Shown: positions 29,339 to 61,922 of the stretch, one piece after another
Position numbering within the stretch: the first letter of the stretch is position 1
Layout: every line of letters begins with the position of its first letter
From: Sediminibacterium ginsengisoli
Lineage (GTDB): Bacteria > Bacteroidota > Bacteroidia > Chitinophagales > Chitinophagaceae
Assembly (NCBI GenBank): GCA_945873615.1
Contig: CAMCDT010000004.1
Location: 10,137 to 74,136 of the forward strand
Direction: 5' to 3'
Length of the DNA: 64,000 nt
Program-made: the position numbers and the translations under genes
The notes under the pieces: generated by a model
Told to the model about the DNA's origin: nothing
Seen by the model: only the letters and a program-made list of their open reading frames with translations
Databases searched by the model: none

Positions 29339-29360
29339 ATTTATTTTATAATGAGTCAGG

Positions 29361-30542: not shown

Positions 30543-30551
30543 AATCAGTTA

Positions 30552-31865: not shown

Positions 31866-31887
31866 ATGGGTAAACTTTAAATCGTAA

Positions 31888-32544
31888 TTATTGTACTTTT
31901 TTTATGAGCTTTACAAGTTCTTTTGTTTGGGCTTCTAAATCCTTATAATTTTTATTCGCTAAAATATCTTTGGTAATTAGTTTACTTCCAAGCCCCACGC
32001 CTGACACACCTGCTTTAAACCAGGCACCAATATTTTGCTCGGTTGGCTCTACACCACCTGTTACTAAAAAGTCGACCCCTGTAAATAATGTTTTAATGGC
32101 TTCTACAAAACCAGGACCTAATACATTACCCGGAAATAATTTTACAAGTGTAGCGCCAGATTTTTGCGCCACATGAATTTCTGTGGGGGTCATACAACCT
32201 GGTATCCATAGCACTTTGTGCATGTATGCAACGTCTGCAACACTCGCATCAAAACAAGGACTGATTAAAAAATCAGCACCAGCTTCAATAAATGCGGTAG
32301 CATCTTGCGGTGATTTAATGGTACCAATGCCAAGTATCAAACCAGGCATCGTAGATTTTAAGGAAATAAGGTGCTTAAAATTTGGAAGTGCATGCACACC
32401 CCTATTGGTAAATTCAACACATCTAACGCCGCCATTGTATAGTGCTTGAAGCACATTTTCACAAACAGTAACGTCATCATGATAAAACAAAGGCAACATA
32501 CCTTCATTTTTTATTTGATTGATTAAAGCCGCTTCTCTTTCCAT
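31888..32544 (-). CDS. eda: KDPG/KHG aldolase
   Basis: VEFTNR, GIGTI, GADFLISP, PGCMTPTEI, VKLFPG, TGGV; located in the hexuronate operon. Confidence 0.92.
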   Translation of the reverse strand: MEREAALINQIKNEGMLPLFYHDDVTVCENVLQALYNGGVRCVEFTNRGVHALPNFKHLISLKSTMPGLILGIGTIKSPQDATAFIEAGADFLISPCFDASVADVAYMHKVLWIPGCMTPTEIHVAQKSGATLVKLFPGNVLGPGFVEAIKTLFTGVDFLVTGGVEPTEQNIGAWFKAGVSGVGLGSKLITKDILANKNYKDLEAQTKELVKLIKKVQ

Positions 32545-33555: not shown

Positions 33556-33612
33556 ACCTATTTCTTACCCGTTTGATTTACAAGATAATATGAAATGAAA
33601 TAAAAAAGTAGA

Positions 33613-35025: not shown

Positions 35026-35041
35026 CTCTTCAAATTTTTAT

Positions 35042-36694: not shown

Positions 36695-36698
36695 TTCT

Positions 36699-38147: not shown

Positions 38148-38151
38148 ACAA

Positions 38152-40215
38152 TCAATTATTCTTGTTTATTTTTTGTAACCATTTTGGATAATTTACGAGC
38201 AGTAATGTTGCTGGCCAAGTTCCATACCAACCATACCCTGTTCGGCGTTCAACATCAATTTGGCGTAAATCATATTTTTTATCGCTATCTCGTCCACTAA
38301 AAAAAGGACGGTTGGTTCCTATTTCATAAAACCTTGCCCAGATAGTGCTATTAATATCTGGTGCAATGATTCTATCTTTTCCTTTTGGCTCGTTTGGAGC
38401 ATCAACATCTACATATTTGAAGCCTTTAATTTTTACCGATTCAAACCATTCTATACCAGCTTTAATAGCAGCAATAATTTCTGGTGACGGATTTTTTTGG
38501 CGCATTAAAAACTTAAGAATCCCCACCGACTCTTGCCCACTAATAGACACTAGCTCAAACTTTCTAGCCATTTCTGGTTGCAAAGTATTTTTATTGTACT
38601 GCGCACACCAGCCAGTCAAAACGCCATTTACTTTTATTTGTGTTCTTACAATACATCCTATCCCCAATTCAATTGCAAGTTTTGCTTTTGGAACAAATTC
38701 CGCATTAACTACCTCAAAGTTTTTAGCGCCTTCTACAATGTCTTGCATTATATTCAGCACATTTACTATGGCATCATCATTAAAAGTTATTTGACTTCTA
38801 TAAGAAGATGCATCAGGATAGTATTGTGGCCATCCACCTGTTGCATATTGCGCTTTTAATAAATAAGCAATTCCTTTTTCGGCAGCATTTAGATACTTTT
38901 CATTTTTTGTTTTTTTAAACGCTGCCACCAGGTACCTAATTTCTTTTGTTGTTGCACCATTGTCAATGGTTGGATCATTTTTAAGCGAGTCCGCAATAAT
39001 TAATTTTCGCTCCGCCGGCGTAAGCGTTTTTTTGTAATCAACTTTAATATCATTGATTGCTTTTGGCCAACCACCAATAGCACGCTGATACACAAGCATA
39101 TTTTCGGCTACAGCATCAACCGCTGATACTTGATTTGCTGCTGATAATTTAAATGTAGTTGTGTCAGGCATCCATTTGCCACCAAATAACCAGTTAAGTG
39201 TTATGTTTTCTGGCTTGATATTTCCTTTTGCGGTTTCTAGGTTATTTTTTAGCCAAGTAAATGCTGCACCTTCTTTTACTGCATTATAAAAATAAACGCG
39301 CTGCCCCCAATTAATTTGGTTTTGAGGATTAGAAGGATTTAAATAAATAGGAGCATCGGCCATCTCTTTGGCGAACCAACCATTGATAATATAAAACTGC
39401 GCGTCTCTATGGTAACGCCCAAGTTTAAATCCAGGATCACCTGTAAATGAACAGTTAATGAGCACCGTATTAGCGTCTTCATTTTTAGATCCATCATGCC
39501 ATATTGCGGCGGTATTTCCGTGCGCAATAAAACTGCAGTTTTCTGCCCATGCCCAACCCCTAGGACAATAAAAATCTACGCCGCCTTCCATGATGCAGTC
39601 TTTGAAATAAAAAAAGCCTGCTTCTGCATTCCAAGGGCTTACCGTATCGCCACCATAGGCCCTAAAAATGCAATTTTTAGCGACCAGTCTTGTGGTGGCA
39701 AAGCTTCTAAGCGCCATTTGATGACCACTATTTCTAACCTCCTTATTTGGGTGTAATGAATCTTTGGGGCAATTGATAAGTGCCGGCGTTGCGTTATTCT
39801 GATTTTCAAAACCATAGGTATTGGTAATCGTTAGGTTTTCGAGTACAATATCATTTGATTTTAAATTGATGGTGGCCACACCCCAATCATCATCATTTTC
39901 GCAGCGCCAAATATCTCTTGCTAATGAAATAGTAAGTATGGTTGTGTTTTTATCTTCTCCAATTAAGCTGACAAAATCCTTTTCTACAAAAATCTTTTCT
40001 TTATAGACGCCCGCTTTTATATATATGATTCGGGGTGCAGAAGCTATGTCAGATAAACTATTAATAGCATCCTGTATTGAAACAAAATCGGCTCCTCCGC
40101 GTTGATCCACCACAATCATTGACTTACTTGAGGCTTGCGCATAAAGTTTTGTATCACTGAAAAATCCAATGATGGTCATCAAAAAAGCGAAAAAATAATA
40201 GCTTGTTTTTTTCAA
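38152..40215 (-). CDS. Bimodular pectin methylesterase (CE8) / pectate lyase (PL10)
   Basis: CE8: GVYKEK, QMALR, GDTV, DFYCPRG, LGRY. PL10: TIDNGAT, GGWPQYYP, ITFNDDA, WCAQY, ARKFE, RRTGYGW. Has an SPI-type signal peptide. Confidence 0.88.
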   Translation of the reverse strand: MKKTSYYFFAFLMTIIGFFSDTKLYAQASSKSMIVVDQRGGADFVSIQDAINSLSDIASAPRIIYIKAGVYKEKIFVEKDFVSLIGEDKNTTILTISLARDIWRCENDDDWGVATINLKSNDIVLENLTITNTYGFENQNNATPALINCPKDSLHPNKEVRNSGHQMALRSFATTRLVAKNCIFRAYGGDTVSPWNAEAGFFYFKDCIMEGGVDFYCPRGWAWAENCSFIAHGNTAAIWHDGSKNEDANTVLINCSFTGDPGFKLGRYHRDAQFYIINGWFAKEMADAPIYLNPSNPQNQINWGQRVYFYNAVKEGAAFTWLKNNLETAKGNIKPENITLNWLFGGKWMPDTTTFKLSAANQVSAVDAVAENMLVYQRAIGGWPKAINDIKVDYKKTLTPAERKLIIADSLKNDPTIDNGATTKEIRYLVAAFKKTKNEKYLNAAEKGIAYLLKAQYATGGWPQYYPDASSYRSQITFNDDAIVNVLNIMQDIVEGAKNFEVVNAEFVPKAKLAIELGIGCIVRTQIKVNGVLTGWCAQYNKNTLQPEMARKFELVSISGQESVGILKFLMRQKNPSPEIIAAIKAGIEWFESVKIKGFKYVDVDAPNEPKGKDRIIAPDINSTIWARFYEIGTNRPFFSGRDSDKKYDLRQIDVERRTGYGWYGTWPATLLLVNYPKWLQKINKNN

Positions 40216-40219
40216 TACA

Positions 40220-42139
40220 TTATTTTTTAATTGGAATTTGTTGAATCAGCCACTGCACTAAATCTTTTGCCGCCTGCGCATTTTGATACATAACTGGAAG
40301 CTTTCGTCCATCGGTGTATTCGTTATAAAGCCAAGGATCGCCAGTTGCAAACACAGTGCCCTTTCCTAATTTAGCCGTTGCAAAAACAACCAAATCTCCT
40401 TTTGACAGCAATTTTTGAGCGGGCGCCTTAACCGTTATAGAACAAACTTCTTTTTGATAAATGGTTTGCACATTTTTAAGAATTTTATTTCCGGTAGGCA
40501 CTTCAATTTTACCGCCCACATAATCATTTCCAATTACTCTATTATGCGTATCCTCATTAAAATGAATACCAAATAAATCAGATAATTTATTGATAGCAGT
40601 AAAATCGGCATTGGGTTTGTCATTGTGAAATAAAACAAGCACCCCACCTGCTTTTACCCAATTATAAATCTCCGTCGCATCTTTATCACTCATGTAATTT
40701 GGAGTAGGGGTATCTCCTACATTATCTGCATCTACAATCATGTATATAGATGCATTTTTTAAATTACTTAGTGTTGGCGCTTCAGACAGTGTTTTAGTTT
40801 GCAATCCATTAGCGGTTATTACATTTCCTAAAAATGAAAAACCATTGTTATACATTTCAGGCCATTTGTAATGGTATGCATATTCTACACCTTTGATATC
40901 CTTTTTCTTTTCAGCATTGTAATAGTCGTCTAATAAAAAAACTTGCTTCTTGCCAAGTTTTGGTGCCGTATGCCACTCCATTTCATTAGCAGCTTGTATA
41001 AATGCCCCAACACCTTTTGGATCATTTACAACCACTTTTTCAGACATATAATATGCATAGCTACCATCACGGTAGGGCTTACCGCCAAGTCCACTCACAC
41101 TTACGGTTCCTTCAAGGTTGGCATACCCCTTATCGTCTTTTCTAATAAACTGTTTTACAATACCATCATATCCTTTTGTAGCAAACGCTAAATAACTTGT
41201 TGGCAATAACCCTAAACGTACCGCTTTAGCCGTCGCGCATACAAACATGGCGCTTGCAGAAGCCTCTACATAATTTCCTTTTTCTTTAGGCAGGTTTAAA
41301 ATGTCATACCAAAGGCCCGTTACTGGATCCTGTACTTTTTTGATAGCATCAACTAACCTTTTTAAAATAGCTACAAGTGCTTCCCGTTTTGGGTGTGACT
41401 CAGGAAAGTTTTCCAACACATCTACAAGTGCCATTTGGTACCAACCCATGGCCCTGCCCCAAAAATGAGGAGAGCAACCCGTTACTGGATTGGCCCATTT
41501 TTGTTCTTTACTTTCATCCCACCCATGGTATAACAAACCTGTTTTAGCATCTCTTGCGTGCTGCTCCATCCAAATAAATTGATTAGCAATGTCATCAAAT
41601 GCTTCCGGCTCATGAAACTGTTTGGCATAAGCCGTATAAAATGGCTGACCCATATAAAGTCCGTCAAGCCACATTTGGTTTGGATATATTTTTTTATGCC
41701 AAAACCCACCTTCCTTTGTGCGAGGCTGACCTTTTAACTGATCTCTTAATAAAGATGCTGCTTTATAATATTTGGTTTGGCCTGTTACATTGTATAGCGT
41801 TAGTAAAATTCTGCCACATAAGATATTATCAATGTTATAGTCCTGTGCTTTATAAAATTTAATGTCACCGTTATCGGAAACAAAATAATCCATACTTTTT
41901 TGCATGTATGAAAAATATTCAGGATTGGCCGTTTGTATCCATAAACGCTCGATACCAAGTAGTACCACACCCTGATCGTAGGTCCATTTTGTTGGCTTTG
42001 CAGTGTCTGCACCAGCTTTTTCTTTCCATAAAGTAGCCATTGCCGTTGCCGCTACTTCTGCTGCTAAAGATTTGTTTTGCGCAAATGCAAACTGCATGTT
42101 CACACAAACCACCAATACGATCAAAATTATTTTTTTCAT
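40220..42139 (-). CDS. GH105 unsaturated rhamnogalacturonyl hydrolase with a C-terminal DUF4350-like domain
   Basis: WTYDQG, IDNILCGR, RTKEGGFWHK, MWLDGLYM, LLYHGWDES, FWGRAMGW, EASASAMF; extra ~250 aa GATase-like C-terminal domain. Confidence 0.9.
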   Translation of the reverse strand: MKKIILIVLVVCVNMQFAFAQNKSLAAEVAATAMATLWKEKAGADTAKPTKWTYDQGVVLLGIERLWIQTANPEYFSYMQKSMDYFVSDNGDIKFYKAQDYNIDNILCGRILLTLYNVTGQTKYYKAASLLRDQLKGQPRTKEGGFWHKKIYPNQMWLDGLYMGQPFYTAYAKQFHEPEAFDDIANQFIWMEQHARDAKTGLLYHGWDESKEQKWANPVTGCSPHFWGRAMGWYQMALVDVLENFPESHPKREALVAILKRLVDAIKKVQDPVTGLWYDILNLPKEKGNYVEASASAMFVCATAKAVRLGLLPTSYLAFATKGYDGIVKQFIRKDDKGYANLEGTVSVSGLGGKPYRDGSYAYYMSEKVVVNDPKGVGAFIQAANEMEWHTAPKLGKKQVFLLDDYYNAEKKKDIKGVEYAYHYKWPEMYNNGFSFLGNVITANGLQTKTLSEAPTLSNLKNASIYMIVDADNVGDTPTPNYMSDKDATEIYNWVKAGGVLVLFHNDKPNADFTAINKLSDLFGIHFNEDTHNRVIGNDYVGGKIEVPTGNKILKNVQTIYQKEVCSITVKAPAQKLLSKGDLVVFATAKLGKGTVFATGDPWLYNEYTDGRKLPVMYQNAQAAKDLVQWLIQQIPIKK

Positions 42140-42144
42140 GCTTT

Positions 42145-44487
42145 TTATTGTTGATAGGTGATGCTATTTGATTTTGCGCCAAATAAAAACTCATCTTTTT
42201 TAATAGCTGCACTTGTGTTTGTGGATGTTACTTTAATTGCATTTGAACCGTCACCATTAACACTAAATAGCAAAGGGATATTTGGCTCAATCCCTAAACG
42301 GTTAAAGCTAAGCTTGCTGCTATTTTGGATATACACCAGCGGACTGGCTTGTTCCGTAATAAGTTTAACATTGTTAAACTCAATATTTGAACCCTCCGTA
42401 ATTTCAATTCCCTTACGGGTAGCAAATACCATATCACTTAATACTAAATTGGAAATATTCATTTCAGGAATACCTCTTACAAATACCGCTTTATCGGCAC
42501 CATTGCAATAGACATTGTTAAAATAGAAGTTTCTAAAAATAGGCGTTGCTTCTGTTACCGGCAGTGTTTGAATAACAGGCATGTCCTTTTTTTCGCCCTC
42601 AAGCGTTATAGGATCCTTAGCAGCGTAATACATGTCAAACAAAACAGCTTCACCTACAATATCTCGCATGGTTATGTTGGAAGCATAAATATTTTCTACA
42701 ACACCCCCTCTCCCTCTAGTTGTTTTAAAACGAAGTCCAATATCAGTTCCAATAAATGTACAGTTAGAAACAAAAATATTATTAGCACCACCACTCATTT
42801 CGCTTCCAATCACAAAACCGCCGTGGGCATGATACACTGTTGTATTAATTGCAATAATGTCTTTGGTTGGCATACCTCTTTTGCGTCCTTCTTCATCTCT
42901 ACCAGATTTAATACAGATACCATCATCACCGGTGTCAAAATTACAACCATCAATAAGCGCGTTGGTGCAAGACTCTAGATCTAGGGCGTCTGTGTTTTGT
43001 CCATACCATGGATTTTTAACATTCACTTTTCTGATGGTGATATGCTTACTCATAAGTATGTGCATAGTCCACGCAGGAGAGTTTTCAAAAGTGACGCCTT
43101 CTAATAACACATTAGAACAACCCGTAAAACGGATCATATTGGGTCGTAAAAAATCACGGATCGGCTCAAAATCTTGAAGCGCTGCACCATTGATGAGCTT
43201 TCCAATATTGTTGGTAAGCGAACCTTTTAATGCGCCCGCCGATGGATACCAGTTTGATTTGTCTTCACTTAAAACGCCACCCGTTTTGATCAATCGCTTC
43301 CATTCTGATTCTGTAACCTTTCCTTTTTTTAACGGGCGCCAGGCTTCACCACCGCCATTAAAAATACCTTGTCCTGTAATGGCAATATTAACAGCGTCTG
43401 TTGCCGAAATAGGAGACTGACATCTTGCTGCTTCAACGCCTTCAAAAGAAGCCACTTTTAAAGGATATTGAGTTCTGTCCTTTGTAAATATAACTAGTGC
43501 ACCTCTTGCTGTATTAAGTTCTACATTGTTATGTAGCACAATAGGGCCTGTTAACCAAAGACCGGCAGGAATATATACAATACCGCCACCAGCTTTATTT
43601 GCTGCAACAATAGCGTTATTAATGGCTACTGTATTAAGTGTAATACCATCTTTTACTGCACCAAAATCAACTACGTTAAATGTGTCTTTTTTAAAATGAG
43701 GCTCGTATATTTTTGGAAGCTCAAAAGCATATTTCTCTTTGTGTGCAGAGCGCAGTAAATATTTTTCTATTACGAAATGTTTTTCTAAAATTTCGGCACA
43801 TACGAGTGACGCTATTTGCGACGCACCGTATTCAGAAAAATGGGTATCATCTTTTTTACCAAACGGCATCACTTTAAAATGATTGGAATCAATCCATAAA
43901 AACATTTTTTTTGATCCTTCAACTCCTTCTTTCTCAATTAATTTTTTACTAGACGCGTGAAGGTCAATGAGTGGAACATGCATAGAGTCCGCTAAAAAAC
44001 GAACAACGCCCGGGTAGTTGCCATGCTGGTCAACAAAAACACCTGAGCCATTAAATTTGCGGCGCATTACGGGCGTCATTAAAATTGGATTGCCCCCTTT
44101 TTTCCTAGTATCTGTAATAAACCTAATTAAGTTTTGTTTGTAAAGCGTATTTGCAGGTGCAGATCTAATGGAATCATCGAGTTTTGAATCGTTATGACCG
44201 AACTGAATAAACACATAGTCGCCTTCTTTCATGTATTTCATTACGGTATCCCATCTTCCTTCTTTGATAAAACTTTTAGTACTCCTGCCGTTAACAGCAA
44301 GGTTTTTTATTTCAACAGCACTAGAAATATATTGAGGGAATAATTGTCCCCAACCTCTTTCTGGATTATCGGCAAGTGGTTTATCTGCCATAGTAGAATC
44401 ACCAATCATAAAAAAAACAACCTTTTTTTCAGGTGCCATAAACCCTACTAAAATAATAGCAGCGAATAAGTATACAATTCTTTTCAT
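42145..44487 (-). CDS. Bimodular CE12 (rhamnogalacturonan/pectin acetylesterase, SGNH) / GH28 polygalacturonase
   Basis: SGNH blocks GDST, NGRST, QFGHND, DTHF. GH28 motifs NTDALD, GDDGICIKSG, HGGFVIGSE, GLRFKT. Confidence 0.9.
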   Translation of the reverse strand: MKRIVYLFAAIILVGFMAPEKKVVFFMIGDSTMADKPLADNPERGWGQLFPQYISSAVEIKNLAVNGRSTKSFIKEGRWDTVMKYMKEGDYVFIQFGHNDSKLDDSIRSAPANTLYKQNLIRFITDTRKKGGNPILMTPVMRRKFNGSGVFVDQHGNYPGVVRFLADSMHVPLIDLHASSKKLIEKEGVEGSKKMFLWIDSNHFKVMPFGKKDDTHFSEYGASQIASLVCAEILEKHFVIEKYLLRSAHKEKYAFELPKIYEPHFKKDTFNVVDFGAVKDGITLNTVAINNAIVAANKAGGGIVYIPAGLWLTGPIVLHNNVELNTARGALVIFTKDRTQYPLKVASFEGVEAARCQSPISATDAVNIAITGQGIFNGGGEAWRPLKKGKVTESEWKRLIKTGGVLSEDKSNWYPSAGALKGSLTNNIGKLINGAALQDFEPIRDFLRPNMIRFTGCSNVLLEGVTFENSPAWTMHILMSKHITIRKVNVKNPWYGQNTDALDLESCTNALIDGCNFDTGDDGICIKSGRDEEGRKRGMPTKDIIAINTTVYHAHGGFVIGSEMSGGANNIFVSNCTFIGTDIGLRFKTTRGRGGVVENIYASNITMRDIVGEAVLFDMYYAAKDPITLEGEKKDMPVIQTLPVTEATPIFRNFYFNNVYCNGADKAVFVRGIPEMNISNLVLSDMVFATRKGIEITEGSNIEFNNVKLITEQASPLVYIQNSSKLSFNRLGIEPNIPLLFSVNGDGSNAIKVTSTNTSAAIKKDEFLFGAKSNSITYQQ

Positions 44488-44510: not shown

Positions 44511-44527
44511 TCGTAGCTCAAGACTAC
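44511..44527. promoter_or_regulatory. Conserved element A, copy 1: TCGTAGCTCAAGACTAC
   Basis: 15 of 17 nt identical to 51374-51390; contains the inverted repeat GTAG-N7-CTAC. Confidence 0.7.
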
Positions 44528-44569
44528 TCAAATAATGATGAAAAATAGGCATAATTTTAGACTTTATTT

Positions 44570-44586
44570 ATGCAATCGTTCCCGGT
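44570..44586. promoter_or_regulatory. LacI-type operator, copy 1: ATGCAATCGTTCCCGGT
   Basis: Central-CG pseudo-palindrome resembling PurR/LacI operators. The 15-bp core is identical at 51435-51449, and the site lies next to the LacI gene. Confidence 0.8.
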
Positions 44587-44669
44587 TTTTAGGCCTACTT
44601 TTTAAGTCTTTGATAATTATCGTATTTTTATGCTTTAGGACAATTTTGAGTCACTTTTTTGATTTTTCT

Positions 44670-45713
44670 ATGAAATACGAAGCGGTTACCATTAAAGACA
44701 TTGCCAAGGCCCTAGGCCTTTCGACGTCTACCGTTTCACGGGCATTAAGGGATAGTTATGAAATTAGCACCGAAACCAAAAAAATAGTCATAGAATATGC
44801 CCAACAAATCAACTACAGGCCCAATCCTATTGCGCTTAGTTTAAAAGAAAAAAGGAGTAGGTCCATTGGTATTATTGTTTGTGAAATCGCCAATAGTTTT
44901 TTTTCACAAGCCATCAACGGCATCGAGTCTATTGCTTATGACAAAGGCTATAACGTAATCATTGCGCAAAGCCACGAATCCTATGAAAGAGAAATTTTAA
45001 ACCTCCAATATTTAGCCTCTAGGTCTATAGATGGCCTTCTTATTTCGGTTTCGTCTGAAACAGAAAATTTAGACCACTTAATCAATTTACACAAGCGCGG
45101 ATTTCCAATTGTGTTTTTTGACAGAGTTGTTGAAGATTTAGCCACACACAAAGTAGGTGTAGATAATTATAAAGGAGCTTACGATGCTACTACTGAACTT
45201 ATCAAAAACGGCCACCAAAATATTGCAATGGTTGCAGGTTCAGAATTTTTATCTATCACCAAAGAAAGAGTAGCGGGTTATCATCAAGCACTTTCTGACC
45301 ATCAAATACCTTTTGACGCCAATCAAATTGAGTACTGTTTACATGGTGGCATGCTTTACGAAGAAGTTGAAAAAGCACTTGGAAAGCTATTATACCAAAA
45401 TACCAATACCCCTAGCGCAGTAATTGCTTCTGCCGACAAACTCACTACCAATTGCCTTCGTTACTTTAAGTCCAAAAACTTACAAGTGCCTAGCGATATT
45501 GCTATGATTGGCTTTTCAAACCTAGATTTAACCGATTTACTCTCGCCATCACTTTCCGTAATTAGACAACCTGCCTTCGAAATTGGACAGGTAGCTATTG
45601 AATTACTCATCAAGCAAATTGAAAACAAAAGACCTACCACCGAGTTTGAAAAAATTATTTTACCCCCTCAAATGATTATTAGAGAATCAAGTGGTGCCAA
45701 AAAAATTAGGTAG
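44670..45713 (+). CDS. LacI family transcriptional regulator of the pectin locus
   Basis: VTIKDIAKALGLSTSTVSRAL, YRPNPIALSLK, IDGLLIS, PIVFFDRV, IAMIGFSN, PSLSVIRQP. Start set at ATG 44670. Confidence 0.95.
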   Translation: MKYEAVTIKDIAKALGLSTSTVSRALRDSYEISTETKKIVIEYAQQINYRPNPIALSLKEKRSRSIGIIVCEIANSFFSQAINGIESIAYDKGYNVIIAQSHESYEREILNLQYLASRSIDGLLISVSSETENLDHLINLHKRGFPIVFFDRVVEDLATHKVGVDNYKGAYDATTELIKNGHQNIAMVAGSEFLSITKERVAGYHQALSDHQIPFDANQIEYCLHGGMLYEEVEKALGKLLYQNTNTPSAVIASADKLTTNCLRYFKSKNLQVPSDIAMIGFSNLDLTDLLSPSLSVIRQPAFEIGQVAIELLIKQIENKRPTTEFEKIILPPQMIIRESSGAKKIR

Positions 45714-46134
45714 ATTTTACTGCTTGGCGTGCTAATAATTTCCAATCTTTTCCAACCTTTTTGAATACGAGGAGGATTTTTAGTTTTACTTCACCAGGCT
45801 TTCCGTTATCGTTGTTTGTTGCAAACAATTGATGTCTTATAACCGCTACATTACCTGTAATTGAAATTTTTTGATCGGTATTATTTATAGTTAAAAAGTC
45901 TGATTTTCCAGAAGCGATTTTTTCTACAAACTCGGATTTGTTCTCAACCGCTCCACTAGAATGACCATAGCTTAAACTTTCATCTGTAATATATTCAAGA
46001 TCTTCCCTAACCCCACTAATCATGGCAAGTCTGAGTTTTTCTAGCGCTGCTTCCACACGCGCATACTCTTTTGATTGAGAAAATCCGGCGTTAGCAATCA
46101 ATAGCGTTACACATAAAATGATGCACTTTTTCAT
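45706..46134 (-). CDS. Secreted NTF2-like (DUF4440) protein
   Basis: Signal peptide; LSYGHSSGAVENKSEFVEKI, GNVAVIRH, WKLLARQA. Confidence 0.8.
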   Translation of the reverse strand: MKKCIILCVTLLIANAGFSQSKEYARVEAALEKLRLAMISGVREDLEYITDESLSYGHSSGAVENKSEFVEKIASGKSDFLTINNTDQKISITGNVAVIRHQLFATNNDNGKPGEVKLKILLVFKKVGKDWKLLARQAVKST

Positions 46135-46190
46135 ACAATAAATTCTTTATTTTATAACTGAAATTAAGCATTAGAAACCTATTCGCCAAC

Positions 46191-46222
46191 AAAAAAGGCT
46201 ACTCATCTGAGTAGCCTTTTTT
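46191..46222. terminator. Bidirectional intrinsic terminator after susD
   Basis: AAAAAAGGCTACTCA-tc-TGAGTAGCCTTTTTT, a perfect inverted repeat. Confidence 0.9.
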
Positions 46223-46242
46223 ACTTACTAACTTATTAGTTG

Positions 46243-48066
46243 TTAATAGCCAGGGTTCTGTGAAAGATTGCGGTTAGCATCTCTTGCAGGCTGGGGTATG
46301 GGTAGCAATTCAGATTTGCCACTAACAAATCCTGTAGCATATCTTGAAAGAGCTGTTGTGTTGATAGCCGCACTTAACCAAACTACTTTTGTTGTACCAG
46401 AAGGTGTTGCAGTTGGCGCTGCCTTGTAAAATGAATTCGCCCAAAGACCTCCAGCACCAAATCTATTGTCATCACTCGTATTTTTATTTTTGTAAAACAT
46501 AGAAGTTGGCAGTGTATTATATGGAGCTGATAAAGTTGACATTGCTAGAAGAGCCGCCTTAGTTTCGGCAATTTTTGATGCGAGCATATTCCATCTAATC
46601 AAATCGTATTTACGAACTCCTTCACCACCTAATTCTAATGAACGCTCTTTTACAATTGCTGTAAAGAAACTTGCTTTACTTAAGCCCGCTGGTAAATCAA
46701 CAGCTGCATTAGGCGCTGTTATAGATTGACCATACCCTCTTCTTCTAACTTGATTTACAGCATTGTAAGCAGCTGTTGTAGGGCCATTTAATTCATTTTC
46801 AGCTTCAGCAAACATGAGCATCACATCCGCATAGCGAAGTATTTGCCATTTTAAACTAAAATATTGGATTTTATCTGTTGGAGAAACCGTTGGATTTGAG
46901 ATCCAATCTCTACGATATTTTCCATCGCAAATGGCTGTAATGGCTTGACCTAATTTAATTTTACCATCCGTATCAACATTATAAATGGCGCAGGTTACAT
47001 CACGTCTTAAATCGGTAGAATCAAATGCATAAAAGTATGTTGGCAGCACATTGATGCTTTTATTTCCAAGCTTATTAACAGAAGGTCCGTTATAATAGGC
47101 AAGCTTAGTGTCTCCTGCACCAACACCACCAATACCACTTGCCTGGAACATCAATTCGCCATTTGGATCAGCCACCGCTCTTGCATTCACTTGATCTTTC
47201 CATAATGCCTTATAACTTGGATTTAAACTGTGTTGATTTGAGGCCATTACTTCTGCAGCTTCATCTCTGGCAATTTGATAGTATTTTAAATAATCCGCAG
47301 TACGTTTTACAACTCCATCTTGGCGTAATGAAAATCCGCCTCTATAAAGTGCGATTCTTGCACGAAGTCCTTTAACGGTTCCTTTGGTAATTCTTTCATC
47401 AGCACCATCGCCAATAGCAGACAATTCATTTCTCCAAGGCACAAGTGTTGCAGCTAATTTTAAATCTTCTAGTAAGCGATCATAGAGCGTGTCTCTGTTT
47501 GTTCGAGCAGGAAAAGGATTACTTGTTGCTAATGTAGATGCAGGTGCAAAATTAGCCGGCAAATCGCCCCAGTTTCTGATAGCTTCCGTATAAAACTGAG
47601 CTCTTAAAGTTAAAGCCTCACCATACATTCTTTGTAATTTCTTTTTTTCCTGGTCTGTTCCATTTGAGTACATCGCCATTTTAGGAATATTGGCGATACA
47701 AATATTTGCATACTCGATTCCTGTAAACATTTGGTTAAACGGATTGGTGATTTGTGCATTACCTGGCGTTGCATTATAACGTGCAATATCTCTACGATCG
47801 TTATCACCAGATCCAGTTGGACCCTGCATCTCATCCGTATCTAGCGGATAATAGAGGCTTACGCGAATACCATAGCCTGCATCACCTACCATTCTACTAT
47901 ACACGCCAGCTAATGCTTTTAGTGCGCTAGGAACGTCACTAAATACAACCTCTGTACTAACATCAGTAATTGGCTTTTGATCTAGAAATTTATTACAACT
48001 ATTAAATGACAACAAAACAATTGCTGCAACCGATAGCGTTAATTTATATAAGTTTTTCGTTTTCAT
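46243..48066 (-). CDS. susD: SusD/RagB family surface lipoprotein
   Basis: Lipobox FNS-C, then FLDQKP; GEALTLRAQFY, WGDLP, LRYADVMLMFAEAENE, NQVRRR, ERSLELGGEGVRKYDLIRW, QNPGY; follows susC. Confidence 0.95.
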   Translation of the reverse strand: MKTKNLYKLTLSVAAIVLLSFNSCNKFLDQKPITDVSTEVVFSDVPSALKALAGVYSRMVGDAGYGIRVSLYYPLDTDEMQGPTGSGDNDRRDIARYNATPGNAQITNPFNQMFTGIEYANICIANIPKMAMYSNGTDQEKKKLQRMYGEALTLRAQFYTEAIRNWGDLPANFAPASTLATSNPFPARTNRDTLYDRLLEDLKLAATLVPWRNELSAIGDGADERITKGTVKGLRARIALYRGGFSLRQDGVVKRTADYLKYYQIARDEAAEVMASNQHSLNPSYKALWKDQVNARAVADPNGELMFQASGIGGVGAGDTKLAYYNGPSVNKLGNKSINVLPTYFYAFDSTDLRRDVTCAIYNVDTDGKIKLGQAITAICDGKYRRDWISNPTVSPTDKIQYFSLKWQILRYADVMLMFAEAENELNGPTTAAYNAVNQVRRRGYGQSITAPNAAVDLPAGLSKASFFTAIVKERSLELGGEGVRKYDLIRWNMLASKIAETKAALLAMSTLSAPYNTLPTSMFYKNKNTSDDNRFGAGGLWANSFYKAAPTATPSGTTKVVWLSAAINTTALSRYATGFVSGKSELLPIPQPARDANRNLSQNPGY

Positions 48067-48084
48067 ATATTTAGCATTATAAAA

Positions 48085-51000
48085 TTAAAAGTTAGCATTT
48101 ACACCAAAAATAAAACTGCGACTTTTTGGATATGCAGAATAATCTAAACCAGGTGTTAGAGGACTATTACGTACACTAACTTCTGGGTCATATCCTGTGT
48201 AATTAGTGAATACAGCTAAATTATTGGCAGTGAAATAAAATCTTAGTTTAGAGATTTTCATTTTAACTAAGTTTTTTATTGGCAAACTATAACCCACCGT
48301 TAAGTTGTTGACACGTAAAAAAGAGCCGTCTTCAATAGCCCATGAACTTGGGAAAAATGCACCCGCCGATTTAATAGGTTGCCATATAGTTGCATTTGCA
48401 TTTAATGCCTGTAATGCTCCAGGCGCGATGCCCATAACTTGTCCTGTAGAACTTATCCACTGTGCTGTTTGGCCTTGAGGTGTTACTACTTTCCAACGGT
48501 TAGTCATGATGTCCAACATGTTTGAATTTGGCGTATAACCATTTGTGAATTCTACTTTGTTAGCATTGTATATATCATTACCATAGCTAAAGTTTAAAAA
48601 CAAGCTCATGTCCCAGTTTTTGTAGGTAAACTGCTGTGCTAAACCACCTGTAAATTTAGGAGTAGGATTTCCTATGATGGTTCTATCCTTATCCATATTT
48701 ATCACACCATCTCCATCTAAATCTTTAAACTTGATAGATCCTGGTTGCACCGTTCCAATAACACCAGAAGCATTAGCAACGCCTGGCTTAAGCGTATAAA
48801 CACTTGTTGCGGTATTGTAATCAAAATCATTGATGCCATAAAAACCATCATTGATTAAACCCCACATAGCACCAACTGGATCTCCAATTCTTACGATATA
48901 GTCGGTGGGCTGACCAGAAACGCCCCAACTAGCAGCGGGGAAAAATAAATTTTGATTTTGGCCCAACGCTTCAACACGGTTGGTGTTGAAAGAGATATTG
49001 AAGTTTGCATTCCAAGTAAAATCTTTTTTCTTGGCAATTAAAGCACCCAATTGCAGCTCCACCCCTTTGTTAGAAGTTTTACCAATGTTTTGCAACTGCG
49101 AACTGTAACCATAGGTCGATGCAATTGGCACATTGAGTAACAAGTTTTTCGCTTGGTTGTTATATACATCTAAAGAGAAAGTGACACGATCGTTTAAGAC
49201 ACTCAAATCCACACCAAAGTTTTTACTTTCGTTGGATTCCCATTGAAGTGCTTCATTAACGAGTCCCGCAGAGTAATATGCATTGATGGGCTGGTTATTG
49301 ATTCCATAATAAAAACGACCATCGTTACTAAAGGTTGTTAAAAATAAATAGTCGTTAATTCGGTTGTTTCCAACATTACCATACCCTGCTCTAAACTTAA
49401 GGTCAGAAATGAAACTAACATCTTTTAAGAAATTTTCATTTTTAGCTCTCCAAGCAACAGAGCCTGAAGGAAATATACCCCACTGCTTACCTGGCGCAAA
49501 TTTTGAAGCCCCATCAGCTCTTGCATTAAGTGTTACGTAATATTTATTTTGGTAAGCATAGTTAATTCTGCTAAAGAATGACATATTGGTATATCTCGTC
49601 TTATTTACTCGAGGATACCCAGTAAAAGTGATGCCACTACTAAGATTTCCAAATGCATCGTCTGGACTGATGAAATTTGCAAATCCTCTTACTAGTTGGG
49701 TGTAAGACTCCGTTCTGAAATCAAAAGTTTCTTGCCCCAATAAAAAGTCAAAATCGTGTTTTCCTTTAAACTTGTTAATTGAATAGGTTAATACATTAGA
49801 ATTTGTAATTGTTTTACGAATAGCTGTATCTAACTGCGCAATTGGTTTTCTAGAACCAGATATCATTGAATATGGCGTAATAGAATCACTAAATTGTCTA
49901 TCCACTAGCTTAAACTGATCAACACCAACGGTAGATTTAAAAGTTAAATTTTTAGCAATATTATAAGTTACACTTAGTGCAATATTTCCAACTGTTGTTG
50001 ACTTTCTTCTATACTCAGCATCCGCAAGCGTAATTGGATTAATAAGATTAAGACCATTACCAACGTTTGGATCAGCTAAAGGATCAGGATCTTCGATTTC
50101 TTGGTTGCTAGATAAAAAAGGTCTATACTTTACAGCATTTCGAAGTCTTGAAAATGAAGACCCTTGATTAGATGAAACCCCTGCACCATTCACTTCTGTT
50201 TGAGTGTATCTGGTAGTTAAGGCAGCTTTTAATTTTTTACTGAATTTATAATCTGCACTTAAATTTAATAAGTCTCTTTTGTACGTTGAATTTAAAATAA
50301 CTGCCTTGTCATCATTTCTTGTATATCCAAAGTTGTATGTCAAGTTTTTAACACCTCCTGCAGCAGTGATATTATGCGTTTGGGCAATACCCGTACGACC
50401 CATCAATTCATCTTGCCAATCAACAACACCAACACTATTATAGTTTTTTAAAGTATCCCATGTAGTTCCAAAATTTCTAATAAAATTTAAACTATCGGTA
50501 TTTGATCCTCGAGATCTTTCCGACTGATACATAACAAAATCAGCTGGTGACAAAACACCTAGTTTTTTAGCGAGTTGTTTAACGCCAACAAAACCATTAT
50601 AGCTTACTTGTAGTTTTCCGGGCTTCCCTCTTTTTGTTGTAATTACAATTACTCCATTTGCGCCACGTGCACCATAAATGGCAGTTGCAGCAGCATCTTT
50701 TAAAACGTCAATATTTTGAATATTTTGAGGCGCAATGGCTGACAATCCATTTTCTACCTGAATTCCATCAACAATATATAATGGAGAGTTGTCACCAGTA
50801 ATTGACATGCCACCTCTTACCCTTACAGTCACATCTGCATCTGGAGCACCTTCGGCAGTTGTTGCAGTAACACCCGCTAAACGTCCGTTTAAAGCTTCGG
50901 CTGCAGAGTTTACAGGGATATCTTTTAAATCTTTTGCACTCACACTGGCAATAGATGCAAGTACGTTTTTACGCTTTACCGTTTGATAACCAATTACCAC

Positions 51001-51336
51001 CACTTCTTCTGTTTCTGTTGCAGATGAAACTAATGAAACATTGATGGTTGTTTTATTATTGACAGCAATGGTTTGATCAGTATACCCCACATAAGAAAAG
51101 GTTAAAATACTTTTGCCATTTTGCAATAAAATTTTAAATTGACCATTTTTGTCTGTAACGGTACCTGCTTCTTTTCCGTCTTTAACCCTAACGCTTACGC
51201 CTTCTAGTGGAAGGTCGTTTGAAGTAACTTTACCTTTTACTTCAAGCTTATCAGTTTGAGCAAAAGAAACATTAGGATGTAAATTTAGTAACCCTACCAG
51301 TAATAACAGGTACAGGCATACACTTTTCATACGCAT
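48085..51336 (-). CDS. susC: SusC-like TonB-dependent transporter
   Basis: Carboxypeptidase-like N domain, [63 protein letters not shown], C-terminal [15 protein letters not shown]. Start could be 51330. Confidence 0.97.
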   Translation of the reverse strand: [1083 protein letters not shown]

Positions 51337-51373
51337 ACGTAATTGAATTTAGCAATCATTAAAATGTTAAAAA

Positions 51374-51390
51374 TCGTAGCTCAATGCTAC
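51374..51390. promoter_or_regulatory. Conserved element A, copy 2: TCGTAGCTCAATGCTAC
   Basis: Matches 44511-44527 and lies at the same distance from the operator. Confidence 0.7.
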
Positions 51391-51432
51391 ACCCATCTAG
51401 ACAATCTTTACGCCAAAAACGATTATTTTTCT

Positions 51433-51449
51433 ACGCAATCGTTCCCGGT
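51433..51449. promoter_or_regulatory. LacI-type operator, copy 2: ACGCAATCGTTCCCGGT upstream of susC
   Basis: 15-bp core identical to 44572-44586. Confidence 0.8.
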
Positions 51450-51471
51450 AAATCAAGGGTATTAGGTGAAT

Positions 51472-53595
51472 TTACAGGGGGAGTATCCTGATATTTCTGA
51501 AACGAACTACGTCTCCATGGCCTAAAAAGCCAATATGACCTGAAGTTCGCTTTAATCCAGGGTGATCATTGTGGTCCATCGTCCCGTTTATTGAAGCCTC
51601 CCTAATATCAGCATCTGTAATCGTTTCGCCATTTAAGACCACTTTTACACGGGTTCCCTTTACCACAACAACTTCCTCATTCCACTCGCCGGTAGGCCTT
51701 AGAAAGCCCCTTCTAGCCGGCACAACGCCATATATAGAGCCGTGGTACTGGTAAGGCTTCAAGTTCTTATAGATGTCCGCCTCATTATCCAGTATTTGTA
51801 GTTCCATACCAACATAAGCGGCATCGCCAGTTAGTGGCGCTCGAATGCCAAGCCCATTATTTGCCCCAGGGGTTAATTGGAACTCAAAACGGTATTCAAA
51901 ATCGGAATACTGCTCTTTGGTATATAAATTTCCGCCGCCTGCACTTTTTGGATTCACCATAATGGACCCGTCTTGCAAAAGATAGCCGGCTTTATTGCCT
52001 ACCCAGTTGTCTAAATGTGTGCCGTCAAATAATTGCTTAAAACCTTGCTGCTTTTCCAAATCCGAAAGTTTGGTTGGCTCGTTACTAGGAAGCTCTCTAA
52101 TATAAATATTACGGTAAGCTACATAAGTACCATGCGCCTGTAATTCAATTTGCTCTTTTACAAAAATGGGAAGCGTGCGGTCCCAGTAATTTTCTAACGC
52201 CACTTTATCTGTTACAAGCACACCATTTAAATAAACCGTTACCTGCGCTCCGCGCATGATAATGTGAAAAGTATTCCAACTACCAATTTTATTATCTGCT
52301 ACCACTTTTGGATGGCGCTCATTTTTTTGATTATTGTAGAGTCCACCAGAACCCACCTGCGCGCCTACTTCACGTCTACTGGTATCCCAAATTTGTACTT
52401 GTGGTGTGCCGCGCAAATAAATACCAGCATCTCCTTTTTCGGTGATTTTCCAATCCACAAAAAGTTCAAAATCGCCAAACTGTTTTTGTGTACATAAATT
52501 ATCGCCATGCCCTGTAAAAACAAGAAGGCCATCTTTTACCACCCAGTCGGACTTTATTTTTTCATCGGCTTTTTTTTGCGCATCAATAAGTTGTTGCGCA
52601 GTCATTTTTGAGCGCGCAATAGGATTGGCAACAAGGCCTTTCCATCCGGTTAAATCTGTTCCGTTAAATAAATTTTCGAAACCATAATCATAAGGCATGG
52701 CCTTAATATGATAAGCCAACTTACCAGCTACAATAGCACTATCCTCCCCTCTTAATAAAGCAAGTGCTTTTTGTACAACAGGTCTTATCATCGGACCTTT
52801 AAAATCCGGATTGGCAAGTGCTAGCTTAGCAACTACAAGCGCTGCATCAGATTGTAGCGCTGGCGTTTCTAAATATTTAGCAGCAAACATGAGCGCACCT
52901 AGTTTGTTTACTTTGCCAGCTTCTATAATAATTTCTTTTTGAGCCGTTGGGCTTTTTGCCGTTTCCATTTGATCTTGCAAATCCAACAACCTCTGCGCGG
53001 GATGAACTTCTTTAGCGGGCGTTAATGCAACTGCCTGTAATGCGGGCAACACAAGCTTTGCGTGTTTGATTGCTGCTTCAATGGCAGGCTTTGCAGCAGG
53101 CGTTGCTTTTGCTAAAGCAGCATCTAGTGCAGCTAATGATTTTTTTGCATGAAGCGTAGCAAGTGACATAGCCGCTGCATCAGAAAGTGCAGGAACCTCA
53201 ATATAACTTGCAATTGTTTTAACGGCTTTATCAGACCCTAAATAACCAAGTCTTTCAATTAAATATGAGCGTACTAAAATATTTTTTTCTTGTACATCTT
53301 TTAATTGCTCAAGCGCACCAATTAAAACATTAGCTGCTTTATTTGCCAACGCTTTGTCAGTAGCGGCTGCATGCAAATATGCATCTAGCTCATACATCGC
53401 TTTTACGTGAGGTGCATTAGTGCCAGCTTCTGTACTATTAAATACATTAAAAAACGATGTCCAGTCTGCTTTTTGCCAAGCCTGCATTTTTGTAACAGTG
53501 GCCGCTACAGAAGCAGTATTGCCTTGCGCAAATGCACTGCTTGTAATAACTAAAAAAAAGGCTGCTATAATAAAAGCTGAAAATATTTTTTTCAT
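51472..53595 (-). CDS. Helical (HEAT-like) N-terminus plus two DUF1080 (3-keto-disaccharide hydrolase family) domains
   Basis: Signal peptide, Ala-rich helical region, then two repeats LFNGTDLTGW...FGDFEL...WNTFHI...ELQAHG...YRNIYI and LFDGTHLDNW...YSDFEY...EWNEE...GFLGHG...FRNIRI. Confidence 0.85.
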   Translation of the reverse strand: MKKIFSAFIIAAFFLVITSSAFAQGNTASVAATVTKMQAWQKADWTSFFNVFNSTEAGTNAPHVKAMYELDAYLHAAATDKALANKAANVLIGALEQLKDVQEKNILVRSYLIERLGYLGSDKAVKTIASYIEVPALSDAAAMSLATLHAKKSLAALDAALAKATPAAKPAIEAAIKHAKLVLPALQAVALTPAKEVHPAQRLLDLQDQMETAKSPTAQKEIIIEAGKVNKLGALMFAAKYLETPALQSDAALVVAKLALANPDFKGPMIRPVVQKALALLRGEDSAIVAGKLAYHIKAMPYDYGFENLFNGTDLTGWKGLVANPIARSKMTAQQLIDAQKKADEKIKSDWVVKDGLLVFTGHGDNLCTQKQFGDFELFVDWKITEKGDAGIYLRGTPQVQIWDTSRREVGAQVGSGGLYNNQKNERHPKVVADNKIGSWNTFHIIMRGAQVTVYLNGVLVTDKVALENYWDRTLPIFVKEQIELQAHGTYVAYRNIYIRELPSNEPTKLSDLEKQQGFKQLFDGTHLDNWVGNKAGYLLQDGSIMVNPKSAGGGNLYTKEQYSDFEYRFEFQLTPGANNGLGIRAPLTGDAAYVGMELQILDNEADIYKNLKPYQYHGSIYGVVPARRGFLRPTGEWNEEVVVVKGTRVKVVLNGETITDADIREASINGTMDHNDHPGLKRTSGHIGFLGHGDVVRFRNIRILPL

Positions 53596-53624
53596 GGTGG
53601 TTGATTTGTCAATAATTTAAAATA

Positions 53625-54887
53625 CTATATGCCCCATGGTGCACGCATAGGCGGGTTAATCATTTTATTGGCTTCGTCATCACCAATAAATTCTTGTGTT
53701 TCAGGATTAAAATTTAATGTGCGTCCTAACTGCAACGCAATTTTACCCAGGTTAATTATGGTGCAAGACCTATGCCCATTGGACTCATTCAGCGCAAATG
53801 GTGTTCTGTATTTTACGGATTCTAAAAAGTCAGTTACTTGTGGAACAGGGTCTGGTAGTAACGCTAATTTCTCTTTTAAATTAGGAATGGTTGATTTAAA
53901 TCCAGCAAACAACTTACCCTCTGGACCTTCAATGTATGCCACCGATTCATCTTTGGCTTCACCATCTAAAATTATTTTACAACCATCGGCATAGGTGTAA
54001 ATAATTTTTCGGAATGTGCCGCAAGCATCTGGGTGTTGTTGATCTGCATCTACCTCTACTTTTACTGGGCTGGTATGGTCTTTACCTAAGAAATATTGAA
54101 TAGGATCTAAATAGTGCTGACCCATATCTCCAAGACCACCCCCATCATAATCCCAATAACCTCTAAATGTTCCATGCACGCGGTGTGCGTTGTAAGGCTT
54201 ATAGGGTGCAGGACCTAGCCATCTGTCATAATCTAATGTTTGCGGAACAGGCTGCGCTTCAAGTCCTGTTTTTCCTACCCAATAAAATTTCCAGTCAAAG
54301 CCTGTATGCTTGCTAACCGTTACTGTTAATGGCCAACCGAGCATGCCAGATTCTACTAGTTTTTTTATGGGCTTCACGGTTGTTTTCATACCATAAAACT
54401 CATCTTGAAACCTGAACCATGTATTTAAACGAAACATTCTACCATGTTGCTTTACTGCTTCAACCACACGCTTACCTTCGCCAATGGTTCTGGTCATTGG
54501 CTTTTCACACCAGATATCTTTGCCGGCTTTAGCCGCTTCAATTGACATAATCCCATGCCAGTGAGGAGGCGTTGCAATATGCACGATATCAACTTCAGGC
54601 ATTGCAATAAGTTCATGATAATCTAGCATTGTTTTTACACCACTACCTACCATTTTAGCGGCTGCTGCTAAATGCGTTTGGTCTACATCACATAACGCAA
54701 CCACCCTGGTACCTGCAAGTCCTATATGACCTCTACCCATACCGCCAAGGCCTATAATGCCTTTGGTTAATTGATCACTAGGGGCTATAAACCCTCTACC
54801 TAAAACTTGTCTTGGAATAATTGTTACCCCTGCAGCTATGGCAGCGGTACTGCGTAAAAACCTACGTCTTGAATTGGATTGTGACAT
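53625..54887 (-). CDS. Tat-exported Gfo/Idh/MocA family oxidoreductase
   Basis: SRRRFL twin-arginine signal, GIIGLGGMG, VALCDVD, ATPPHWH, WCEKPM, GLGDMGQHYLD. Start set at 54887. Confidence 0.92.
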   Translation of the reverse strand: MSQSNSRRRFLRSTAAIAAGVTIIPRQVLGRGFIAPSDQLTKGIIGLGGMGRGHIGLAGTRVVALCDVDQTHLAAAAKMVGSGVKTMLDYHELIAMPEVDIVHIATPPHWHGIMSIEAAKAGKDIWCEKPMTRTIGEGKRVVEAVKQHGRMFRLNTWFRFQDEFYGMKTTVKPIKKLVESGMLGWPLTVTVSKHTGFDWKFYWVGKTGLEAQPVPQTLDYDRWLGPAPYKPYNAHRVHGTFRGYWDYDGGGLGDMGQHYLDPIQYFLGKDHTSPVKVEVDADQQHPDACGTFRKIIYTYADGCKIILDGEAKDESVAYIEGPEGKLFAGFKSTIPNLKEKLALLPDPVPQVTDFLESVKYRTPFALNESNGHRSCTIINLGKIALQLGRTLNFNPETQEFIGDDEANKMINPPMRAPWGI

Positions 54888-55013
54888 GGCAAGTATCTTA
54901 ATGTACTTAAAGATATAGAAGTCAGCCAATACTATAACAGCAGTTATTAGCTAATTTTACCCATAAATACACTTGTATTGGCAAGTCTTGTTATACTTTA
55001 CCCAATGATTATG

Positions 55014-57634: not shown

Positions 57635-57686
57635 AAGGCGTCATTCGTAAGTAATTATTAAATTTAGGCTTACGAATGATGCCTTA
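57635..57686. repeat. Long inverted repeat between kduD and the cytochrome/DUF1553 gene, reaching the start codon
   Basis: AAGGCGTCATTCGTAAG (57635-57651) pairs with CTTACGAATGATGCCTT (57669-57685) with one G-T wobble; 17-nt AT-rich loop; ATG at 57686. Confidence 0.9.
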
Positions 57687-60409: not shown

Positions 60410-60414
60410 TTCCC

Positions 60415-61911: not shown

Positions 61912-61922
61912 AAAAGATACAA

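Follow-up and report, generated by a model that had tools for sequence, protein, structure and literature searches.

Two putative promoters sharing a predicted LacI-family operator in a pectin-utilisation locus of a Chitinophagaceae genome

The stretch of DNA analysed here, which we call the window, comprises 64,000 nucleotides (nt) from Sediminibacterium ginsengisoli (assembly GCA_945873615.1, contig CAMCDT010000004.1, positions 10,137 to 74,136 of the forward strand). It contains two copies of a pair of short sequences, element 1 and element 2, that precede genes for pectin utilisation. The lineage is close to Sediminibacterium (Chitinophagaceae) and is present in freshwater metagenomes. Copy 1 lies upstream of a minus-strand GDSL-GH28 gene with its ATG at 44487. 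This gene opens an operon of 11 pectinase and hexuronate genes on the minus strand (28484 to 44487), which we delimited from Pfam assignments and short intergenic gaps. The gene order is GDSL-GH28, GH88/105, a pectinesterase-pectate lyase fusion, uxaB, uxaA, uxaC, kdgK, eda, an MFS transporter, uxuA and an amidohydrolase. In the product of the first gene (42145 to 44487; 780 amino acids), a GDSL/SGNH esterase is joined to a GH28 polygalacturonase; the fusion is kept in many relatives, and some genera have the GH28 part alone, with about 550 amino acids. Copy 2 lies upstream of susC, also on the minus strand, with its ATG at 51336. Together with susD it forms the second unit that would be under control (46243 to 51336; susC 48085 to 51336, susD 46243 to 48066), assigned by Pfam and NCBIfam. 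Divergent from the GH28 operon is a gene for a LacI-family regulator (44670 to 45713, plus strand), identified by Pfam, NCBIfam, comparison with PDB entries and the N-termini of homologs. According to these N-termini the real start is 44670 (MKYEAVTIKD), while the longer open reading frame from 44535 would cross element 1. A near-canonical -7 box, CAATTTTG, is found at 44642-44649 ahead of this start. The regulator is nearest to CcpA, PurR, RbsR and CytR in the NCBIfam and PDB comparisons, and its gene is the sole regulator gene in the locus.

Element 1, GCAATCGTTCCCGGT, occurs exactly at 44572-44586 and 51435-51449, and element 2, TCGTAGCTCAAnnCTAC, exactly at 44511-44527 and 51374-51390 (plus-strand coordinates). 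The two copies are 6863 nt apart, and in both of them 44 nt separate the elements. An earlier, sequence-only reading of this DNA had reported these positions and the common gap as a duplicated bipartite cassette, and both hold exactly. Its description of the 44-nt spacers as unrelated is largely right, since 19 of the 44 positions are identical without gaps, but the identity is mostly concentrated in a common (G/A)TA followed by an A-rich start. The repeated 15-mer taken alone is unremarkable, because short repeat families with 12-nt seeds number 60 or more in this DNA. What makes the pair significant is the identical spacing of two elements together with their conservation across species. For element 2 the chance expectation is 0.07 matches with up to 2 mismatches, and two matches occurred in none of 100 shuffles. 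As had also been noted earlier, neither kduI nor the Gfo gene is preceded by such a site, since an 18-mer weight matrix finds two sites only in the whole 64 kb.

The comparison on which our reading is built covers 80 loci around orthologs of the LacI gene in Chitinophagaceae (63-97% protein identity), in which element 1 was allowed up to 2 mismatches. These loci are biased towards genes of polysaccharide utilisation loci (PULs), and general promoter statistics derived from them were discarded for this reason. Element 1 is present in 71 of the 80 loci, mostly between lacI and the gene divergent from it, and in many cases a second time 6-10 kb away. Cultured relatives that have the module include Sediminibacterium ginsengisoli DSM 22335 (L025) and S. 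goheungense DSM 28323 (L031). All matches with a callable downstream open reading frame stand before a GH28 or susC ortholog and in one orientation, barring three that we set aside as non-sites: the plus-strand matches of L006 and L059 are opposite-strand halves of palindromic forms, and a match in L069 lies inside coding sequence. The site is tied across genomes both to the regulator gene and to the target genes, and the 64-kb window has two such sites. The first 60 residues of the regulator, its DNA-binding domain, are essentially invariant in all loci, and so is the core of the site. With the N-terminus essentially invariant, the part common to all sites is the best candidate for the sequence that the regulator reads. 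Covariation between regulator and operator was looked for across the loci and gave nothing usable, both being invariant. Taken together, the comparison supports element 1 as the core of the predicted operator of the adjacent LacI-family protein, as the sequence-only reading had proposed.

The 58 non-redundant sites have the consensus cAtCGTTaCCGGGAACGATTGCGTAaAaAAA. They contain a conserved block aCCGGGAACGWTTGCGTA, of which element 1 is the best-conserved, promoter-proximal part, and within it a near-invariant stretch CGGGAACGWTTGCGTA centred on AA|CG|AT. In the window the predicted operator O1 of the GH28 promoter reads ACCGGGAACGATTGCATA (44569 to 44586, minus strand) and scores 28.7 of 34.2 bits with the weight matrix. 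The O1 of the susC promoter reads ACCGGGAACGATTGCGTA (51432 to 51449, minus strand), reaches the full 34.2 of 34.2 bits and has orthologous sites before susC in relatives. Directly 3' of the operator a GTAaAaAAA consensus is strongly conserved among the 58 sites; in the GH28 promoter of the window the corresponding A-rich tract is AATAAAG (44562 to 44568, minus strand).

PurR recognises the box ACGCAAACGTTTGCGT, GalR its operator OE with the sequence GTGTAAACGATTCCAC, and CcpA the cre site. The predicted operator resembles sites of this LacI/GalR kind in its 16-18 bp length, in its central CpG, in adjoining the gene of its regulator, whose closest matches are CcpA, PurR and RbsR, and in its right half GATTGCGT, which is a PurR half-site but for one base. 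Of the 16 positions of the PurR box, the full CCGGGAAC|GATTGCGT agrees with 12, and its core AACGATT also occurs in gal OE. It differs in being strongly asymmetric in the window, where with the left half CCGGGAAC only 4 of 8 dyad positions are symmetric, although the central CG and the 18-bp conserved block are present. In relatives a further difference is that it belongs to a row of four hexamers in which CG recurs at 6-nt intervals (AWCGWT | nyCGGn | AACGWT | TGCGTA). It also keeps one orientation and a constant distance from the promoter. The distal hexamer AWCGWT, with which the operator of most genera forms a dyad symmetric at 7 of 8 positions, is lost at both promoters of the window clade and is replaced by T-rich or A-rich sequence at 44587-44595 and 51450-51458; the DNA-binding domain of the regulator is unchanged. 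Two sigma-factor readings of element 1 were rejected on spacing. A sigma-54 promoter needs GG-N10-GC (-24/-12), and here GG and GC are only 8 nt apart; an extracytoplasmic function (ECF) sigma promoter needs GGAAC-N16/17-CGT, and GGAAC and CGT are only 5 nt apart.

The 5' half of element 2 contains a second conserved feature, a box TA[G]nnTTG. It reads TAGTCTTG at site 1 (44519 to 44526, minus strand) and TAGCATTG at site 2 (51382 to 51389, minus strand), and GTAGCATTG is conserved in the susC-type promoters of other genera. Promoters of the primary sigma factor of Bacteroidota, sigma-A, have a -7 box TAnnTTTG (PMC9723704, PMC7366714), placed at -12 to -5 in a start-site map of Flavobacterium psychrophilum (PMC9723704). 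Five of the six specified bases match, with TA and TTG in the same register in both copies. In the window itself, TAnnTTTG precedes housekeeping genes, among them atpG, mdh and maeB, at a distance of 30-39 nt from the ATG, and the boxes described here start 39 nt (site 1) and 53 nt (site 2) before theirs. Because it matches in sequence and in position, we read the 5' half of element 2, at both sites on the same basis, as a likely sigma-A -7 box. With this assignment the predicted transcription starts are 44514 and 51377, with leaders of 27 nt (GH28 operon) and 41 nt (susC). Element 1 would then lie at -72 to -58, the 18-bp operator at -72 to -55 with its centre AAC|GAT at about -63.5, and the A-tract at -54 to -48. 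A -33 element (TTTG about 19 nt upstream) was also looked for, and TTG at a spacer of 17-21 nt was found in just 4 of 39 sites. Five canonical housekeeping promoters of the window likewise lack a -33 TTG, so the missing element does not discriminate, and we dropped the argument that its absence makes these promoters activator-dependent.

In 77 of 92 sites across the loci, the box begins at one of two distances 3' of element 1, which is 45 nt for 66 of them and 46 nt for the other 11. A third promoter type, before another susC, has TA(A/C)TTTG at the same offset from element 1. The spacer sequences between operator and box have diverged from site to site, and the leaders are between 84 and 450 nt long. 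So fixed a distance implies that a single complex recognises both the operator and the core promoter. Each of the two window promoters is orthologous, up to the box, to its own type in other genera. The picture of a duplicated cassette is thus correct as to two copies with one spacing, but misleading as to their origin. A dispersed repeat or mobile cassette was likewise rejected: the spacers are identical at only 19 of 44 positions, the window holds two copies only, and each has its own orthologous promoter type. On this comparative evidence the two sites appear to be ancient promoters of one local pectin regulon, with the 44-nt spacing as an old conserved constraint and not the trace of a recent copy. 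That this anatomy, an operator together with a core promoter, is present at both sites is in our view quite probable.

Downstream of the box the window clade has a history of its own. In Sediminibacterium-type relatives (L009:1660-1940, L014:9460-9740, L062, L013, L012, L025, L027 and L030, all minus strand) the same LacI-linked promoter is followed by a GH28 leader of 220-280 nt. It ends in a terminator hairpin with a U-run about 40-60 nt before the GH28 ATG. The hairpin shows compensatory changes at 4 of 12 pairs and has no match in Rfam, and such a leader could act as an attenuator or a small RNA. Relatives' GH28- and susC-type leaders, and a few sites without element 1, also share a motif AAAyTGCyTGCCATG 50-100 nt 3' of the box (for instance, on the minus strand, L019:~18998, L062:~19641 and ~9680, and L014:~9682), which is absent from the window. 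RNAalifold gave no consensus structure for the relatives' susC-type leaders. Judged from the alignment, the window clade has deleted the long GH28 leader, of which just the last ~30 nt before the ATG still align.

What follows the box in the window is the 3' half of element 2, the octamer AGCTACGA. At site 1 it lies at 44511 to 44518 (minus strand), predicted as -4 to +4 around the start A at 44514, and contains the operator-like hexamer TACGAG. At site 2 it lies at 51374 to 51381 (minus strand), again predicted as -4 to +4, with the start A at 51377, and is followed by TTTTT. The sequence-only reading had seen in element 2 as a whole either the site of an unknown second regulator or a conserved hairpin of the 5' untranslated region. 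Among the 80 loci, the full 17-mer of element 2 occurs in L001-L005 alone (LacI identity at least 94%); its 5' half alone, the TAGnnTTG box, is widespread and the 3' arm is confined to one clade. Two further clade members, L201 and L204, were found through the protein and are therefore unbiased towards the motif. Within the clade the positions -3/-2 (GC) vary, with GAACTACGA in L201 and GACATACGA in L204, both of which retain TACGA; at the susC site, variation is limited to -4 (A or G). We considered that AGCTACGA at site 1 might be a remnant of the ancestral leader terminator and rejected it, as only the ATG-proximal 30 nt of the leader align with relatives.

A hairpin transcribed in the 5' leader, serving post-transcriptional control and perhaps, given the U-run that follows at susC, as a mini-attenuator there, would draw on the fact that the stem can form in both copies. 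The difference between them (U.G against C-G) preserves pairing, as does the U-A of L201; RNA contigs of low depth cross element 2, and real terminator hairpins exist in the relatives' leaders of the same promoters. The pairing-preserving difference stands for the two window copies, but pairing is not kept across homologs. Over 55 distinct sites the share of cells that pair is 56%, compared with 50.7% for shuffles and 41-51% for slid controls, and L204 breaks two of the five stem pairs while L201 changes one stem position. The invariant positions of the 22-mer across these 55 sites are T4, A5, T9, T10 and G11. The element 2 20-mers fold with -4.0 and -6.5 kcal/mol, in context no better than shuffles (z = +0.83 and -0.55), a search of element 2 against Rfam gave no match, and site 1 has no U-run. 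The weak pairing statistics and the breaks in L204 argue that neither a hairpin nor a DNA dyad is the conserved feature. Moreover, the 5' arm is the box itself, which occurs in every genus with no 3' arm to pair with. Should this box be the -7 element, the arm would be located 5' of the start and would not form part of transcripts from this promoter. We regard a leader hairpin as very improbable.

The same octamer bears on a DNA-level alternative, in which element 2 (GTAGY-N5-GCTAC, or TCGTAGC...) would be the palindromic operator of a second factor acquired by the clade, overlapping the -7 box and the start. That AGCTACGA follows the box in both promoters has a chance of about 1.5e-5 at fixed register, the octamer completes an inverted repeat with the box, and it is kept in several clade members. 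The two stem positions changed in L204 and the one in L201 speak against such an operator, as do the lack of this dyad in other genera, of a third copy of element 2 in the window and of a second regulator gene in the locus. A metagenome scan for GTAGNNTTGAGCTACGA returned at least 120 loci, nearly all of them chance matches in unrelated DNA. Among the matches listed, the loci of the own lineage (L096, L134, L141, L171 and L185) all five carry element 1 as well, so that the motif occurs there only together with element 1. A second-factor operator is thus very unlikely, if slightly less so than the hairpin. Least probable of all, in our estimate, is that element 2 at the susC site is an intrinsic terminator of the upstream operon of 3-keto-disaccharide-hydrolase and Gfo genes. 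A terminator scan lists TGTAGCATTGAGCTACG followed by ATTTTT as terminator-like, with a loose pattern, and no other terminator is found between the stop at 51472 and susC. However, the same element stands at site 1 without a co-directional upstream gene and without a U-run, and element 2 lies downstream of the operator. The stem has just 6 bp with -6.5 kcal/mol at best, and terminator-like matches in the region are at chance level (7 found, 5.6 expected). From the pattern of conservation, then, element 2 appears to be neither a new RNA element nor the site of a second regulator, and the pair to be an ordinary regulated promoter whose layout is conserved across the family.

LacI-family proteins are mostly repressors, and it is the sign of regulation on which the evidence divides. 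In the mechanism that we favour the regulator would be a repressor that is released by a pectin-derived hexuronate metabolite. Anchored upstream at O1, it would interfere with RNA polymerase on the upstream promoter DNA, and weak operator-like hexamers (the start-site TACGA in element 2, the -44 hexamer and the leader half-site of susC) may assist it. Hexamers of this kind are enriched. In other lineages WWCGWW with the C of its CG at +1/+2 is found in 8 of 64 sites where 0.9 are expected (p = 5e-6), and in susC-type promoters such hexamers also cluster at -44 (5 sites). AACGATT, in the orientation of element 1, occurs 21 times in the 200 nt 3' of the box against 1.7 expected, a 12-fold excess; the reverse orientation is not enriched, and a few of the downstream matches fall in coding sequence (ATGAAACGATT...). 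The susC promoter of the window carries TACGAT at +2, an inverted operator-like AATCGTT (51418 to 51424, minus strand) whose CG lies at -44 and is only partly conserved, and a degenerate second half-site AATGATTGC in the leader (51352 to 51360, minus strand; predicted +18 to +26), 83 bp from the centre of O1. In L003 and L204 this half-site reads AACGATTGCTAAAT, which is the right half of O1. Because most family members are repressors, and because operator-like sequences lie on and downstream of the start, we lean towards a GalR-like repressor.

In the gal operon of Escherichia coli, GalR binds OE at -60.5 and OI at +53.5. By analogy, O1 would sit upstream at about -63.5 with weaker AACGATT-type sites at about +2 to +90, a likeness limited by the weakness of the downstream sites here and by their varying positions between lineages.

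Several observations weigh against our best explanation, that of a repressor acting from this promoter layout. A repressor operator at -63.5 is atypical, and an activator that contacts RNA polymerase would account for the rigid spacing no less well. In the window the operator has little dyad symmetry (4 of 8 positions), and the best dyad of the relatives, ATCGTTnCCGGnAACGAT (7 of 8), is centred 6 bp further upstream and has lost its distal half in the window clade. The auxiliary hexamers score badly with a half-site matrix, the TACGA of element 2 very poorly; we set this matrix aside for auxiliary operators as too strict, since its training sites are near-invariant. The CG of the susC-leader half-site is polymorphic. 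At position 5 the box lacks the T of TAnnTTTG, and its position-3 G is unusually constant, being near-invariant in two of the three promoter types. That both shortened promoters share AGCTACGA is not accounted for by this explanation. Finally, among metatranscriptome contigs assembled from public runs, with depths of 2-7, contigs of depth ~2 cross element 2 (X28 51163-51397, X30 51332-51452 and X29 51384-51634), and those of two runs also reach or cross element 1; the start sites given above remain predicted ones. These contigs may reflect DNA carry-over, read-through or a start further upstream, and read-through from the upstream gene is possible because no clear terminator is found there.

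The activator is accordingly worth stating in full. A LacI-family protein with a pectin-derived co-effector would act in the manner of a class I activator at about -63.5. It would recruit RNA polymerase, with an alpha subunit on the neighbouring A-tract as the probable point of contact, to a -7 box that is sub-optimal. The operator-box distance is rigid (45 or 46 nt in 77 of 92 sites, over three promoter types) despite the diverged spacers, the orientation of the operator is fixed, the conserved A-tract stands where the C-terminal domain of alpha would sit, and the -7 box is without the position-5 T of housekeeping promoters. CRP class I sites lie at -61.5, and the position of the operator is near these and near the cre sites from which CcpA activates. 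The likeness to CRP class I promoters would lie in how far upstream the site is placed and how strictly it is spaced from the core promoter; the protein family is a different one. On the other side stand the predominance of repressors in the LacI family and the enrichment of AACGATT and WWCGWW on and downstream of the start, for which an activator has no need; the missing -33 element is uninformative here, housekeeping promoters being without it too. Activation is a serious rival to repression, though in our estimate rather unlikely. The repressor itself we hold only tentatively, at even chances or slightly below, and the whole of our best explanation, two regulated promoters of one pectin-utilisation locus working by repression, stands at about an even chance.

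A wider formulation covers both signs of regulation. The LacI-family protein would be a stereospecific partner of RNA polymerase, either as a class-I-type activator or as a GalR-like trap of the alpha subunit, at a rigid asymmetric operator at about -63.5 by an A-tract. It would control PUL promoters family-wide and would in most genera be coupled to the leader terminators that the window clade has deleted. We consider this generalisation doubtful. Should the fixed -63.5 geometry stem from contact with RNA polymerase, it would give one of the few documented examples of how LacI-type regulators act on Bacteroidota promoters, whose architecture is unlike that of E. coli. Otherwise the arrangement of repressor, operator and promoter is a familiar one, and what is unusual is the rigid upstream position of the operator. 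LacI-family hexuronate regulons (KdgR, UxaR, UxuR) have already been predicted in Bacteroides from palindromic sites by comparative genomics (Ravcheev et al. 2013, PMC3878776). They are alike in having a local LacI-type regulator and genes for galacturonate and glucuronate catabolism, sometimes with susC/susD, and differ from the present case, which is in Chitinophagaceae and comprises the PUL's own pectinases and susCD under a rigid upstream operator. A random-barcode transposon sequencing (RB-TnSeq) study of plant Bacteroidota held no data on this regulator. The model offers a concrete and testable pectin-use regulon, with operator, box, pectinase, hexuronate and susCD targets and a candidate regulator, for Chitinophagaceae that are abundant in freshwater and soil. 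Genomes of the family can be scanned with aCCGGGAACGWTTGCGTA-N42/43-TAGnnTTG, and the operator and GTAGnnTTGAGCTAC are patterns that can be scanned separately in genomes of the clade.

Some neighbouring features of the window deserve mention. Between susD and a DUF4440 gene, at 46135-46242, lies a strong hairpin with a T-run (aaaaaggctactca..tgagtagcctttttt), which suggests that DUF4440 may have separate transcription; a weak Rfam match to STnc320 in the same interval (E = 0.39) is probably due to chance. Directly upstream of susC, at 51472-54929, are genes for a Gfo/Idh/MocA oxidoreductase and for a protein in which the 3-keto-disaccharide-hydrolase domain (DUF1080) occurs twice. The presence of these genes in a pectin locus, without an operator of their own, hints at an oxidative (3-keto) route of glycoside breakdown. 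After kduI-kduD, at 57686-63335, this Chitinophagaceae genome carries genes typical of Planctomycetes, namely PSCyt1/PSCyt2/PSD1 (DUF1549/DUF1553), DUF1501 and a further PSCyt1 protein.

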